Assembly (NCBI GenBank): GCA_040384765.1
Contig: JAZKIQ010000005.1
Location: 125,927 to 179,246 of the forward strand
Length of the DNA: 53,320 bases
Reading direction: 5' to 3'
Source of the DNA: Patescibacteria group bacterium
GTDB taxonomy: Bacteria > Patescibacteriota > Minisyncoccia > Phycocordibacterales > JBBUBG01
Below the pieces are notes generated by a model that searched no databases, was not told the origin of the DNA, and worked only from the letters and a program-made list of their open reading frames with translations. Below are positions 28,485 through 49,252 of this stretch, piece by piece; position 1 is the first letter of the stretch; each line of letters starts with the position of its first letter. The translations under genes were made by a program, and so were the position numbers.

Positions 28485-29384
28485 CTACTCCTTGCTCTCA
28501 AACGCGGCGATCATCTGCTGGGTGAGATCTTTTGTCTTGCCAATACTCGAGTCCATAAAGATTACCTTGCTTCCCGAAGCGCTCCCAATCGACTTCATAG
28601 TATCGAGATACTGAGTAAGAGTAAGGAGCGCGATGATCTCTTCGCTTTTTTGGCCGGTGGCATGCTTCACAATTTCGATTGAATCCCTAAGACCCTTTGC
28701 AATCGCCTCGCGCTCAAGAGCGATACCCTCACCCTGAAGACGCTTGCGCTCCTTTTCGGCCTCAGCCTCCTTGATCGACTGAATCTTCACGGCCTCTCCC
28801 TTGTTTTCAGCTGCCTTTTTGAGCTGCTCGCTAGCTACCACCTCACTCATCGCCTGAGTGATTGTAGCGGGAAACGATACTTCAGTGATCTGGAAAGAGG
28901 CGATAAGCATTCCCCACTCTGAGAACTGCTTTTCAAGATCGCCTCGGATATGGGTAGCAAGCTCATCTTTTTTCTCAAGAATCCCCTCGTGGGTTTCTCT
29001 TGCTACGTATGTACGAAGAGAGTTCTCGATAATCGCACCGATCGACTGATTGCGGTTGGTGAGAGAATAGGTAAACTGCTTTACCCCATCTTCGGAAGGA
29101 TCCACATTGAAAATGAGGTTGGTGGAGATATCAACGATCACCTTATCCTTTGAAGGGTAGGTATTCTTGATGGCAAAGTTCTGCTGGCGAAGCGTCACCT
29201 TCTCTGCGACACGCTCAAGAAGTGGCAGTTTAAAGTTGAGGCCGGCGTTCATGATGCGCCTAAACTTTCCAAAGAACTCGATTACGTACACCGTGTTCTG
29301 CTGAACAATGCGAATTGACGAAAGAAACAGGATAAACAAAAATCCTGCGCCAAAGAGTACAAAGATTGCTTGAATATCAGACAT
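28485..29384 (-). CDS. SPFH/band 7 domain protein
   Basis: N-terminal TM, IRIVQQ..FGKF..GLNFKLP, C-terminal EAEAE coiled coil. Confidence 0.9.
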   Translation of the reverse strand: MSDIQAIFVLFGAGFLFILFLSSIRIVQQNTVYVIEFFGKFRRIMNAGLNFKLPLLERVAEKVTLRQQNFAIKNTYPSKDKVIVDISTNLIFNVDPSEDGVKQFTYSLTNRNQSIGAIIENSLRTYVARETHEGILEKKDELATHIRGDLEKQFSEWGMLIASFQITEVSFPATITQAMSEVVASEQLKKAAENKGEAVKIQSIKEAEAEKERKRLQGEGIALEREAIAKGLRDSIEIVKHATGQKSEEIIALLTLTQYLDTMKSIGSASGSKVIFMDSSIGKTKDLTQQMIAAFESKE

Positions 29385-29399
29385 GGAAATAGATTAATG

Positions 29400-29558
29400 G
29401 GGTCAATGATCGGGATATGCTCGCTTCACTTCGCTTTAGAAACCCACGGTTTCTAACGGCTACGCCTTTTCCTCCACGGGAAGGGATACTCTCCCTTCCC
29501 GACCCCATCCCCGCAATCCCGATCATCAACTCCTCATTTCGTTTAAACTTCACTTCGG
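29400..29558 (-). repeat. tRNA-Thr 3' flanking element (antisense copy + core + direct copy of the tRNA 3' end)
   Basis: Inverted copy caatcccgatcat at 29514-29526 and direct copy at 29404-29416; GGGGTC-hairpin core between them. Confidence 0.75.
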
Positions 29559-29631
29559 AGCCAATGATCGGGATTGAACCGATGACCCCCACCTTACCAT
29601 GGTGGTGCTCTACCAGCTGAGCTACATTGGC
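29559..29631 (-). tRNA. tRNA-Thr (anticodon GGT)
   Basis: GCCAATG...CCACC AT GGT AA GGTGG...TTCAATC...CATTGGC T. Confidence 0.93.
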
Positions 29632-29722
29632 GTAGTGAGTGAGCGAAAAGAAAAAGAAATAATAATTTATTTTTCTGAATCGCGAAGGAGCGCCCCCAAT
29701 GTATGGTAATCCATACATTGGG
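29632..29722 (-). repeat. tRNA-Thr 5' flanking element
   Basis: ccaatgta/tacattgg hairpin matching the tRNA 5' end, plus a core shared with the element at 30773-30865. Confidence 0.7.
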
Positions 29723-29827
29723 GAGGCCCTTTTCTCCCCCAACTAACAAAGTCGATACTACAGGAAAAATGCCGTATTTTCAATGACGCCCGATCAAGCA
29801 AGGCGTTCGTGGTATTCTATCCGCATC

Positions 29828-30418
29828 ATGGAAAACAGCTCATTTCTGCCCCCAGAATTTATTCTATTTGATACGGAATACACTACATGGGAAGGCACTC
29901 ATGAACGCAACTGGAGCGGGCCAAATGAATATCGTGAAATCGTACAGATAGGAGCGATCCGCATAAAGGGAGCTGCCATGCTCGAGGTAGATAGCTGTCT
30001 CCTGTACACAAAACCCCTCAAAAACCCTATTCTTTCAGCTTACTTTACAGAGCTTACAGGAATATCACAGGAAACCGTGGAGAAAGAAGGACTTCCTTTT
30101 GCTGCAGCACTTGATCGCTTCAAAACATGGTGCGGTGAAACAACGCTCTATTCGTATGGTAACGATGGGACTATTCTGGAAGAAAACTGCGTTCTTATAG
30201 ATACACGAAATCCCTTTTCACCCTCGGACTTTTCTGATATTCGAACCGTATTCGAGCAAAATGGGATAGATACGAAAGGATATATCTCAAGCACCATCGT
30301 ACGAGCATTTGGAAAAGAGCCAACGCGAAGGGGCCACGATGCACTCAGCGATGCACGGCTCATCTTGGATGCTTTGCATGAGCTAGCCGTTTTCCGAAAA
30401 CGCTCCGCCATAAACTAA
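29828..30418 (+). CDS. DEDDh 3'-5' exonuclease (ERI-1/KapD-like)
   Basis: FDTEYT, EIVQIGA, LTGISQ, HDALSDA. Confidence 0.88.
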   Translation: MENSSFLPPEFILFDTEYTTWEGTHERNWSGPNEYREIVQIGAIRIKGAAMLEVDSCLLYTKPLKNPILSAYFTELTGISQETVEKEGLPFAAALDRFKTWCGETTLYSYGNDGTILEENCVLIDTRNPFSPSDFSDIRTVFEQNGIDTKGYISSTIVRAFGKEPTRRGHDALSDARLILDALHELAVFRKRSAIN

Positions 30419-30450
30419 AAACCAAAAAGGCCCGAAGGCCTTTGTTGGTA
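30418..30450. terminator. Terminator hairpin between the convergent exonuclease and tRNA-Asp
   Basis: accaaaaaggcc cgaa ggcctttgttggt. Confidence 0.65.
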
Positions 30451-30516
30451 CAACACATGTATCCCAGGCGGGATACATCACTTGAGACGCCGCTCGCAAA
30501 ACCTGCTTACACTCTG

Positions 30517-30590
30517 CGCGGTCAACCGGGGTCGAACCGGCAACCTCTCCCGTGACAGGGGAGTGCTCTAACCAGTTGAGCTATGACCGC
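30517..30590 (-). tRNA. tRNA-Asp (anticodon GTC)
   Basis: GCGGTCA...CTCCC CT GTC AC GGGAG...TTCGACC...TGACCGC G. Confidence 0.93.
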
Positions 30591-30701
30591 AAGTGAGATA
30601 CGAAAAGCATGCTAGCATGCTTTTCTATCGAACGCCGCGGACATACGACTGAGTATGACCGCAACTCTGACAATCTAACAGACACACGACAAACTGTCAG
30701 G

Positions 30702-30772
30702 TGCCGCTGGATGGAATCGGACCATCGTCTAAGGCTTATGAGTCCTCCGTTCTACCATTGAACTACAGCGGC
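30702..30772 (-). tRNA. tRNA with CAT anticodon (elongator Met or Ile2)
   Basis: GCCGCTG...GAGGA CT CAT AA GCCTT...TCCGATT...CAGCGGC A; paired 1-72, so not an initiator. Confidence 0.85.
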
Positions 30773-30865
30773 AAGCGAAGGAGTGGTGAGGAAAAAGAGT
30801 AGCAATTCTTTTTCTGACATAGCGACTGAGCGCCGCCGCTGTATTGTACCCAGTTATACAGCGGC
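30773..30865 (-). repeat. tRNA(CAT) 5' flanking element
   Basis: gccgctgta/tacagcggc hairpin identical to the tRNA 5' 9 nt, plus the shared core. Confidence 0.7.
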
Positions 30866-30978
30866 GAAAACCGTACTGCTTCCCCCTTCGGTGCGAGCAA
30901 AATTATACTTTTTTGTAAGGAAATTGTCCACGAAACATCTTTACAAACAGCGGCGAAGGGGTATTATGAAATCTCCAT

Positions 30979-31049
30979 CGCGGGGTAGAGTAACGGTAAC
31001 TCATGGGGCTCATAACCCCAGCATGCGGGTTCGATTCCCGCCCCCGCAA
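30979..31049 (+). tRNA. Initiator tRNA-fMet (CAT)
   Basis: C1:A72 mismatch, GGG/CCC pairs in the anticodon stem, CT CAT AA loop. Confidence 0.93.
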
Positions 31050-31240
31050 CAAAGATACAAAGCAGGGCCCCGTAAGGGGCGTTTTGCTTTGTATCTTTGT
31101 TGCGGGGAGCAAGGTGCTTCTGCACCTTACGTGCGGGAATCGAAAGGCACAAGCATATTTTCGCACTAGCGAAAATGCCGAGCCGGGGTCGCGGAAAGTT
31201 TTTGTGACAACAAAAACTTATCTGTGACCGATTCCCGCCC
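31050..31240 (+). repeat. tRNA-fMet 3' flanking element (antisense copy + core + direct copy)
   Basis: gttgcgggg and gcgggaatcgaa are antisense to the tRNA; core ggggtcgcggaaag..tgtgacc; direct copy gattcccgccc. Confidence 0.8.
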
Positions 31241-31280
31241 TTGTAAGGAAACATCCGCGACCGATGAACCCGAATCGTAC

Positions 31281-31856
31281 CTAAATCTTCCGGATTAGCC
31301 CAAACTCGAGGAAAACGCGTTCGAAACGGTCGATTGCCAGCCGAGCTTCTCTTTTGGTAAGCCCGAAGTTTAGTCCCTCATGCGCAATTTTATTGCGCAC
31401 CTTATGCGCCTCCCACGCGTCATCTAAAGTTCGGAAGTCACCCGGCACTACGTTCTTAAGCTTCTCACCTACCGTCTCCCCGGGAATGGCAAGCGAGCGT
31501 AGAAGCTCATCGAGAATCGTATCCGCCTCGAGAATGGCCAGTTTCCAATCCGAAGGATTTTCACTCCCTGCGTGTTTCTTCACCTCTTCCCACTGACCCT
31601 GTCGTGGAGGGCGTTCCTCATCCGGGGTAAGAGTTGGCACGACGAATGAAGATTTTTTGCGAACTTCCCTAAGCTTGATAAGCGCGTACACCAGCCCCAC
31701 CAGAAACGCACCCCCAAGGAAAATACAAAAAAGCCGCAACAGCACTAAAAACTGAGAGAAGACAAGGCTCGAGCCCGAGGGTATGCCGCTTACCGGCTCA
31801 AATACCCACGAGTAGATACGATAAAAAAGATACTGAAGGTTGAGAAAGCGAAACAC
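31281..31856 (-). CDS. Conserved hypothetical membrane protein
   Basis: TM segment then WKLAILEAD..LD...GETVGEKLK...AWEAHKVRNKIAH. Confidence 0.75.
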   Translation of the reverse strand: MFRFLNLQYLFYRIYSWVFEPVSGIPSGSSLVFSQFLVLLRLFCIFLGGAFLVGLVYALIKLREVRKKSSFVVPTLTPDEERPPRQGQWEEVKKHAGSENPSDWKLAILEADTILDELLRSLAIPGETVGEKLKNVVPGDFRTLDDAWEAHKVRNKIAHEGLNFGLTKREARLAIDRFERVFLEFGLIRKI

Positions 31857-49165: not shown

Positions 49166-49252
49166 CGGAGGAGGTGAGATTCGAACTCACGGAACTCTTG
49201 CGAGCTCGGCAGTTTAGTAAACTGCTACCTTAAACCACTCGGTCACTCCTCC
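49166..49252 (-). tRNA. tRNA-Ser with the unusual anticodon ACT
   Basis: GGAGGAG acceptor strand, GCAGT TT ACT AA ACTGC, long variable arm gagctc-gcaa-gagttc, TTCGAAT, G73. Confidence 0.9.

Follow-up and report, generated by a model that had tools for sequence, protein, structure and literature searches.

Copies of tRNA 5' ends in the leaders of tRNA genes of a Patescibacteria genome: candidate mobile elements with target-derived arms

Why should a tRNA gene be preceded by a second copy of its own first bases and by a complement of those bases? The question is raised by a 53,320-nucleotide stretch of a Patescibacteria genome (contig C5:125927-179246; hereafter the window), in which such elements occupy the 5' leaders of tRNA-Thr(GGT), elongator tRNA-Met(CAT), and tRNA-Asp(GTC). 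The genome, G000 in our numbering, comprises 0.82 Mb on 12 contigs with 51% G+C and is rated 99.8% complete. ARAGORN finds 43 tRNA genes in it, 8 of them in the window. The three leader elements are given here in window coordinates, and all lie on the minus strand. Our answer, which we hold with slightly better than even confidence, is that they are mobile elements resembling MITEs (miniature transposable elements with inverted repeats) and repetitive extragenic palindromic (REP) sequences, with arms derived from the target, and that they are tolerated as self-insulated insertions in essential tRNA genes.

The gene for tRNA-Thr(GGT) (29557..29631; called by ARAGORN, Rfam tRNA score of 66.3 bits) begins GCCAATGTA. 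Read toward the tRNA, its leader consists of an outer direct copy, CCCCAATGTA (29714..29723), equal to tRNA positions 2-9 (an 8-nt exact match, also recovered by the hairpin test described below); a loop, TGGATTACCA (29704..29713), which on direct reading is a mini-hairpin variant of the conserved loop of a wider family; an antisense arm, TACATTGGGG (29694..29703); and a core of 62 nt (29632..29693). By sequence and predicted fold, the arm is the 5' strand of a stem that we call P1, and the first 9 nt of the tRNA are its 3' strand. The core, as placed by our alignment A1, contains gcgctccttcgcgattc, an A/T hairpin (P2), and a CT-rich tail, cttttcgctcactcactac, which abuts tRNA +1.

The gene for elongator tRNA-Met(CAT) (30700..30772; ARAGORN and Rfam) is built alike. 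It begins GCCGCTGTA, and the outer direct copy (30857..30865) repeats this sequence, tRNA positions 1-9, as seen both by eye and in the hairpin test. Its loop (30844..30856) is the 13-mer TAACTGGGTACAA, the signature of the family, which is widespread in Patescibacteria contigs and present in 3 copies in this genome. The antisense arm TACAGCGGC (30835..30843) again supplies the P1 5' strand in sequence and predicted fold, and the 62-nt core (30773..30834) reads ggcgctcagtcgctatgtc, then the hairpin agaaaaaga..tctttttc (30815-30791), then ctcaccactccttcgctt. A second CAT tRNA on the plus strand (30979-31050) has C1-A72 and three anticodon-stem G-C pairs, which we take to be the features of an initiator. 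The original prediction had described both leaders as copy, loop, antisense arm, core, and tRNA, with the core motifs gcgctc..cgc..tcagaaaaa..tctttttc, and the sequence agrees from 29723 to 29632 and from 30865 to 30773, motifs included. A covariance model of the 5' element family (R1) matches the two leaders at C5:155549-155641 (window 29623-29715; E of 0.026) and C5:156690-156784 (window 30764-30858; E of 1.3e-8).

Two tRNA-Ala genes on contig C1 (ggc and tgc) have the same build and the same 13-mer loop as Met. The order at Thr, Met, and both Ala genes is thus a copy of tRNA positions 1-9, a loop, its exact complement, a core of about 60 nt, and the tRNA itself. The gene for tRNA-Asp(GTC) (30516..30590; ARAGORN) carries a related arrangement. 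In the predicted fold of its leader hairpin (30634..30665), the copy TTGCGGTCATA (30664-30654) is joined by a short loop to an imperfect arm, GTATGTCCGCGGC (30646-30634), in a hairpin of 12 bp with 1 mismatch; the direct copy had been noted in the original prediction and is there, and the accompanying claim of no clear antisense arm is superseded by this fold. The Asp core (30591..30633; alignment A1, no R1 match) is a palindromic hairpin, gaaaagcatgctagcatgcttttc (30625-30602), with the tail gtatctcactt. In a soil-metagenome contig, near-identical tRNA-Asp and tRNA-Met genes stand 37 nt apart versus 108 nt here, a hint of a shorter Asp leader in a relative.

Altogether, 5 of the 43 tRNA genes carry a 5' element. 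Among them are the genome's sole tRNA-Asp and sole elongator tRNA-Met, and the arrangement must therefore be compatible with function. The match between element and tRNA is specific beyond chance. Our hairpin test takes an 8-mer starting at tRNA position 1-3 and looks within 200 nt upstream for it and, at most 25 nt on, its reverse complement. Cognate hits were found at four tRNAs of the 43 (Thr ggt, Met cat, Ala ggc, Ala tgc), compared with 2 of 1806 non-cognate pairs, both of which come from the element of a divergent neighbour lying within the flank. The Asp leader fails this exact-match test. All outer arms in this genome are perfect over 8 to 10 bp.

The two Ala leaders also show where the arm came from. 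In both, the arm complements the 5' strand exactly, giving G3:C, whereas the real tRNA has G3:U70, which indicates that the arm was copied from the 5' strand of the tRNA. The possibility that the hairpin is the remnant of a deleted tRNA was ruled out on the same observation, since the hairpins have G3:C and not G3:U. Separately, the tRNA-Ala(CGC) gene (C1:118058-118200) is preceded by a degenerate copy of its own first ~30 nt, with a 14-nt exact match at -71.

Would such elements be part of the transcript? Each of the three window elements has a promoter-like site upstream: TTGAAA-17-TAGTAT at Thr (29755..29783; 9/12 consensus matches), TGGACA-17-TATAAT at Met, 36 nt upstream of the outer copy (30902..30930; 11/12), and CTGACA-17-TAGATT at Asp, just upstream of the leader hairpin (30672..30700; 9/12, TG-extended). 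The consensus scan found none between element and tRNA at these three loci. The elements should therefore belong to the leader RNA, within predicted leaders of 75 to 125 nt.

The original prediction held that the antisense arm could pair either with the upstream copy or with the tRNA, so that two folds compete. In silico this is what minimum-energy folding with and without the outer copy gives. With the full leader, four of five models form the upstream hairpin together with all 7 acceptor pairs, the exception being tRNA-Ala(tgc), where the sequestered fold is already the minimum-energy one. When the outer copy is removed, the arm pairs with the tRNA 5' end in all five, leaving 0 of 7 acceptor pairs. 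The competition is thus real on paper and, in the modeled leaders as built, is resolved in favor of the tRNA, the insulating hairpin being the first part to be transcribed.

What kind of sequence is this? Across the whole window, the tRNAs alone reached an Rfam gathering score, and the leader elements had no family match; at E<=10 the region 29300-31400 gave just weak microRNA-like or chance matches. The elements sit in non-coding stretches between the called tRNAs and open reading frames (ORFs) of the window. They belong to a family whose consensus of about 80 nt runs TATAACTGGGTACAATA, P1 5' strand, CTGCGYTCGCTCGG, variable hairpin P2, CTCNCTCACTT, and P1 3' strand ending in ATA. Copies span about 80 to 95 nt and have asymmetric ends, with the 13-mer at one end only. 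There are no fixed terminal inverted repeats and no fixed-length target duplication; the stem differs in sequence among copies, and repeats in the flanks measure anything from 2-3 nt (TA/ATA) to 12 nt. The 13-mer and loop sequences, in contrast, are strongly conserved across distant genomes.

When one genome of each species was scanned for the loop together with the TA pairs beside it, more than 119 stretches came up among the matches listed, strongly enriched for Patescibacteria, where about 139 chance matches are expected in the 596 Gb. Records sharing the repeat families come from Paceibacterota, Nomurabacteria, Yonathbacteria, and Saccharibacteria. In 52 of 88 loop matches (84 in 80 listed loci, plus four added loci), the complement of the bases that follow the loop recurs farther downstream, and in 32 distinct cases it does so at a fixed distance of 53 to 67 nt, directly behind a conserved CACTT-type motif. 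R1 and a second model (R2, for the 3' elements treated below) were run over 151 genomes of the order. R1 had matches in 23 of them, with 1 to 17 copies each (17 in G063). In this genome its full-length matches are exactly the four tRNA leaders (E of 1.3e-8 to 0.035), and there are three further partial copies that lack the 13-mer and have an internal stem, TTGCC/GGCAA.

The behavior of the family in other genomes (labeled G0xx or G1xx for genomes of the order and Lxxx for fetched loci) says more about its nature. In element-rich genomes, P1 is AT-rich and internal to the element, and copies are related by compensated changes, as in G063 with GTCAATATA, GTCATTATA, and GTTGATATA; the loops TGGATTACCA and TCGATTACGA recur in element copies of that genome as well. 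A P1 written in tRNA sequence, with a third perfect copy upstream of the loop, occurs only in G000, and outer copies decay elsewhere. Copies start and end with TA or TATA and sit at TA or TATA targets. They form head-to-tail tandem arrays (L021 and G140), and some carry an extra outer helix of 15-20 bp made of inverted repeats of the unique flank (L018, L031, and L055). At four loci (L078 of Paceibacterota, G074 L165, G048 L137, and G049 L145) a copy interrupts a tRNA-Ile gene at a TA/TATA of the anticodon loop; the two tRNA halves flank it, and a complete tRNA is nested in the P2 loop or lies beside the element. In G003, a genome of the same family, the divergent tRNA-Met pair stands 73 nt apart with no element, against a gap of 206 nt here. 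At an orthologous tRNA-Met(CAT) in G002 (L246), some 35 nt upstream, stand the hairpin GTCAAT-TGGTACG-ATTGAC and, directly after it, GTCAC; possibly this is a decayed member of the family with non-tRNA arms.

A further recurrent site lies between two convergent genes at the end of rpoD. There, in several genomes, the RpoD frame runs 2 codons into the element and ends ..KNYFD*, two codons beyond the ..LLNY* of this genome, which has no element at the site. Judging by its reading frame, the gene takes its final codons from element sequence. We rejected the idea that the rpoD gene end served as the template of the stem, since the same stem occurs at unrelated sites and RpoD in G000 ends two codons earlier. 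Beyond the synteny of the rpoD site, no recurrent neighbor genes were seen around elements. At another recurrent site (L053, L024, and G074 L161), TGTGGATA stands on both sides of the element, with a downstream copy, TGTGGATAA. The latter we take to be the DnaA-box consensus, and the site may presumably be at a replication origin.

The patchy spread, the arrays, the insertions into tRNA genes, and the absence from G003 point to a small mobile or once-mobile repeat, not a leader dedicated to tRNAs. A dedicated tRNA-leader device, as the original prediction envisaged, fits poorly with a family that elsewhere lies mostly away from tRNAs, is patchy, and is missing from the orthologous Met locus.

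On the reading we favor, the element would have inserted after tRNA position 9. Its right end would bring a copy of the target, so that the tRNA is rebuilt downstream, while the original bases 1-9 would stay upstream, beside the old promoter. The succession of flank copy, linker, complementary 'guide', hairpin, and end copy would follow a recognition logic like that of IS200/IS605 elements. Once in place, the element would be transcribed within a leader of roughly 120 nt; the upstream hairpin would form first and hold the antisense arm, after which the tRNA would fold and RNase P would trim the leader. A model of the IS200/IS605 type would explain why excision would leave one intact tRNA, why head-to-tail arrays occur, and why the old promoter stands beside the outer copy.

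Several observations weigh against this reading. The first group concerns the target match. Most copies elsewhere match their left flank in TA/ATA only, and as far as the sequences go, a long guide-target match is not the rule in the family. Nor did we see an intermediate that would explain how P1 was rewritten into four or five tRNA sequences. Of 63 tRNAs whose flanks were long enough in loci fetched from other genomes, a biased sample, none has a tRNA-linked 5' hairpin; a metagenome scan for the GTA..TAC loop form gave 5 matches, all chance-like and in coding sequence. No exact same-species empty site was found, and a hypothetical 25-mer spanning the Met locus had 0 metagenome matches. The perfect outer copies in this genome could equally reflect selection for function.

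The second group concerns the machinery and the strength of some counts. In favor of the reading, Y1/HUH transposases (PF01797) offer a candidate class of enzyme: their genes occur in 91 of the 151 genomes and in 19 of the 22 other element-bearing genomes versus 72 of the remaining 128, a count that rests on related genomes and on a sample of 151 that may differ slightly from the one used for R1. Against it, this genome itself encodes no Y1 transposase, no reverse transcriptase, and one tyrosine recombinase (C4:42940), which leaves it with no evident enzyme for the move. Beside 12 Y1-like ORFs from 6 genomes, R1 found 0 elements (E<=1) and R2 three weak ones (9-11 bits). The promoter scan found 4 sites against 2.0 +/- 1.4 in shuffled sequence, all of them consensus matches, so that the promoter evidence is modest. 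In alignment A2, 7 pairs of P1 have 0-1 breaks over 32 sequences, with many paired changes, a count that is partly circular because those sequences were selected for having P1; the constant spacing of P1 and its conserved neighbors are independent of that selection. Separately, the Y1/HUH-like ORFs of the order (215-290 aa, up to 13 per small genome) match only the C-terminal two thirds of PF01797.

Before the alternatives can be weighed, the 3' sides of the tRNA genes need to be considered. tRNA-Thr(GGT) carries a 3' element too, as was predicted: its trailer (29404..29527, minus strand) holds two copies, one antisense, GATGATCGGGAT (29527-29516), and one direct, ATCCCGATCATTG (29416-29404), on either side of a structured middle; they reproduce the T-arm/3' end in a 13-nt inverted and a 13-nt direct match. 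About 17 tRNAs of the genome are followed by a terminator-like hairpin, then an antisense copy of the T-arm/3' end, a conserved module that we call CORE-A, and a direct copy. In the window, the initiator tRNA-Met has such an element on the plus strand (31125..31248; found by nhmmer, with an R2 match at C5:157051-157174), made up of an antisense T-arm copy, the core, and a direct copy. CORE-A has about 100 nt and three helices, ..GCCGGA-hairpin-GAGGCGGGGTCGC-hairpin-GTGAC, with invariant junction bases, two variable hairpins, and a covarying 3-bp helix (GCC/GGC, GGC/GCC, GTC/GAC). It has no Rfam match, and a reading of it as a hammerhead or other small ribozyme was dropped for that reason and because the conserved boxes do not fit the consensus.

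CORE-A is far more common than the 5' element. It occurs in about 25 other places of this genome (for example, C2:17185-17290, C4:49010-49115, C9:14177-14814, and C10:6941-7046), and R2 found it in 127 of 151 genomes, with up to 26 copies each and more than 1000 matches. Copies in the order lie mostly behind tRNA genes, with arms that match the tRNA. In other genomes, we examined 20 CORE-A copies that follow a same-strand tRNA at no more than 260 nt; 13 of them have an inverted copy (10 nt or longer) of that tRNA's end (non-cognate, 7/358), and 16 have a direct one (8 nt or longer; non-cognate, 17/358). Others stand behind protein genes and take their arms from gene ends, such as the end of rplL. 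For tRNA-Leu(caa), 4 positions of the tRNA end distinguish G000 from L219, whose arm is the exact 20-nt complement of its own tRNA end. In all, CORE-A is the larger phenomenon of the two and probably the bigger finding. At tRNA-Ile(GAT) (C7:1170-1355), we also observed that 30 nt or more of the 3' half, including CCA, is directly repeated 79 nt downstream, with a CORE-A copy upstream of the gene.

The original prediction treated the 5' and 3' elements as mirror images. This is right for the layout, as both systems run outward from the gene end through hairpin, inverted copy, conserved module, and direct copy. It does not extend to sequence: the cores share just the short motif GCGACTGAG, the CORE-A profile gives no match on 5' elements, and the reverse complement of the 5' core has only 10-16-nt similarities to 3' cores (48 comparisons, in which 0 to 6 of 200 shuffles reach each score).

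Could the leaders instead be selected cis-regulatory RNA switches? Here the arm would sequester the acceptor 5' strand and block RNase P, or the upstream copy would hold the arm, with a protein or ligand at the 13-mer or core setting the balance; combined with the 3' elements, control of maturation would then be two-sided. Such a role we regard as unlikely. In its favor, the modeled folds are mutually exclusive and close in energy, the outcome flips with the outer arm, and Ala(tgc) is already sequestered. The elements lie inside predicted transcripts, the outer arms of this genome are perfect at 8-10 bp while those elsewhere have decayed, the 13-mer and loops are strongly conserved across distant genomes, and the 3' antisense arm tracks its tRNA across genera, as tRNA-Leu(caa) in L219 illustrates. 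Against it, just 5 of 43 tRNAs carry the element, and the family lies mostly away from tRNAs with an internal P1; the Met locus of G003 lacks it, as do the 5' ends of the 63 tRNAs elsewhere. The conserved internal loops, rich in pyrimidines on both sides, are unable to pair, and we saw no pseudoknot partner of the 13-mer, for which reason protein-bound DNA fits better than an RNA sensor. The lack of an Rfam match also counts against a switch. Of the interpretation proposed originally, the competing folds hold in prediction and the dedicated regulatory leader does not.

Most of the remaining probability, after the favored insertion and the switch, goes to other origins at the DNA level. There is also a bolder pair of ideas, which we think quite unlikely: that 5' elements and CORE-A form a tRNA-specific, two-sided control or quality system, or that these are programmable single-stranded-DNA elements with long guides, rewritten for each tRNA end. 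In the two-sided version, a cis antisense copy would seize the acceptor or T-arm, a decoy copy would release it, and the 13-mer or CORE-A module would decide through a protein or metabolite.

A by-product of DNA hairpins seems to us improbable as the origin of the leaders. On this account an element landed at the TA of tRNA positions 8-9, and fold-back (template-switch) synthesis then rewrote the arms, the survivors being those events that rebuilt an intact tRNA. Copies do begin and end with TA/TATA at TA/TATA targets, and the 3' antisense copy directly after a terminator hairpin makes a long near-perfect palindrome, as at tRNA-Leu(caa). Duplications span from the insertion point to tRNA base 1, a stretch of 9 nt in this genome and of about 35 nt in G074 L165; a length that varies in this way looks like gene rescue and not like a fixed stagger. 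The 15-20 bp inverted flank repeats of L018, L031, and L055 would be expected as well, yet they share the consensus GTATAnnATACG..ATAGT and may therefore belong to a longer element rather than to copied flank. The non-complementary loops between P2 and the arms were left uncopied, unlike in simple fold-back, and the account requires that exact events happened independently several times, each in an essential single-copy tRNA.

Finally, it is very improbable that the copies are remnants of att-site duplications by a tRNA-targeting element with a tyrosine recombinase, later miniaturized: direct repeats of tRNA ends around inserts are a hallmark of such integrative elements, the genome has one tyrosine recombinase, and tRNA-Ile(gat) on C7 has its direct repeat of 30+ nt of the 3' half 79 nt downstream, but integrases target the 3' part of tRNAs and not positions 1-9, conservative recombination makes no inverted copy, five tRNAs would each need a cognate element, the lone recombinase lies on another contig (C4:42940) and is probably the chromosomal Xer, and the family elsewhere is without such repeats.

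If the tolerated-insertion reading is right, reduced genomes tolerate mobile DNA inside essential, single-copy tRNA genes, the insert supplying both the replacement bases and an internal partner that neutralizes its own antisense arm. This would be a rule of coexistence between compact genomes and their parasites. Two families, that of the 13-mer and CORE-A, have no Rfam match and no mention in the literature searched; neither the 13-mer motif nor such elements in Patescibacteria turned up in the titles and abstracts searched, supplements being outside that search. Both families will confuse annotation of tRNA flanks, promoter and terminator calls, and assembly in Patescibacteria, and both offer a direct test of cis control of tRNA maturation.

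Two further tRNA loci of this genome stand apart from these families. At C4:124250-124500, a broken second tRNA-Pro flanks tRNA-Pro(CGG) with its 5' half (1-31) on one side and its 3' half on the other, and a 12-nt inverted repeat, GTCGAATCTTTT and AAAAGATTTGAC, encloses the inner gene. In the window at 49166-49252 (minus strand), ARAGORN calls a tRNA-Ser with the unusual anticodon ACT beside a divergent tRNA-Ser(GCT), which may be a miscall or a pseudogene.

How do the leader elements compare with known systems? Leaders that act through alternative folds or processing include rRNA processing stems, attenuators, and T-box leaders. In the predicted folds, the elements resemble these in having a leader segment complementary to the end of the mature RNA and two exclusive folds. 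They differ in that no ligand- or tRNA-binding domain was recognized, the arm is neutralized in advance by its upstream partner, and most copies of this dispersed repeat lie away from tRNAs.

Position-specific retrotransposons such as Ty3 and the Dictyostelium TRE insert near tRNA genes. As with tRNA-targeting elements in general, tRNA genes would here serve as safe, conserved landing sites, and the duplicated segment keeps the gene intact. In the present case, however, the 5' end (positions 1-9) is targeted, an inverted copy is made as well, and the insert is non-coding and shorter than 100 nt. This genome offers the element no integrase-type or reverse-transcriptase partner.

The likeness to REP/REPIN-RAYT systems and MITEs lies in short, non-coding, palindromic, intergenic sequences with many copies and a patchy spread. 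Like REP sequences and MITEs, the elements abut gene ends, lie between convergent genes, and may supply stop codons or terminators (here, at rpoD). Unlike them, they have no fixed terminal inverted repeats, the closing stem varies and is tRNA-derived in this genome, and a conserved single-stranded 13-mer stands at just one end. No RAYT linkage was seen in the 12 Y1-like loci, a difference from REPIN-RAYT.

IS200/IS605 elements provide the model for the recognition step. They share asymmetric ends, a subterminal hairpin, and no classical target duplication with the family described here. The layout in this genome, of X, linker, complement, hairpin, and X', together with head-to-tail arrays elsewhere, fits such an element; so do the copies at the rpoD end, at the DnaA-box-like site, and in tandem arrays, with many others lacking a matching left flank. 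In IS608, a guide lying 5' of the hairpin can pair with the flank to the left or with the element's right end, a changed guide retargets the element, and engineered targets were extended to 12/17 nt (PMC3201880, PMC5934647). The pairing in G000 involves 8-10 Watson-Crick bp, versus about 4 nt plus non-canonical contacts there, a single hairpin and guide would have to serve both ends, and no Y1 transposase is encoded in G000, nor was an element found beside the Y1 genes examined. The layout suggests a natural element that recognizes targets of 8 to 20 nt by base pairing, so far achieved only by engineering in IS608 and of interest for programmable DNA insertion. Compared with its MITE/REP and IS200/IS605 relatives, the unusual part of the system is its triple set of target-derived arms at the ends of tRNA genes.

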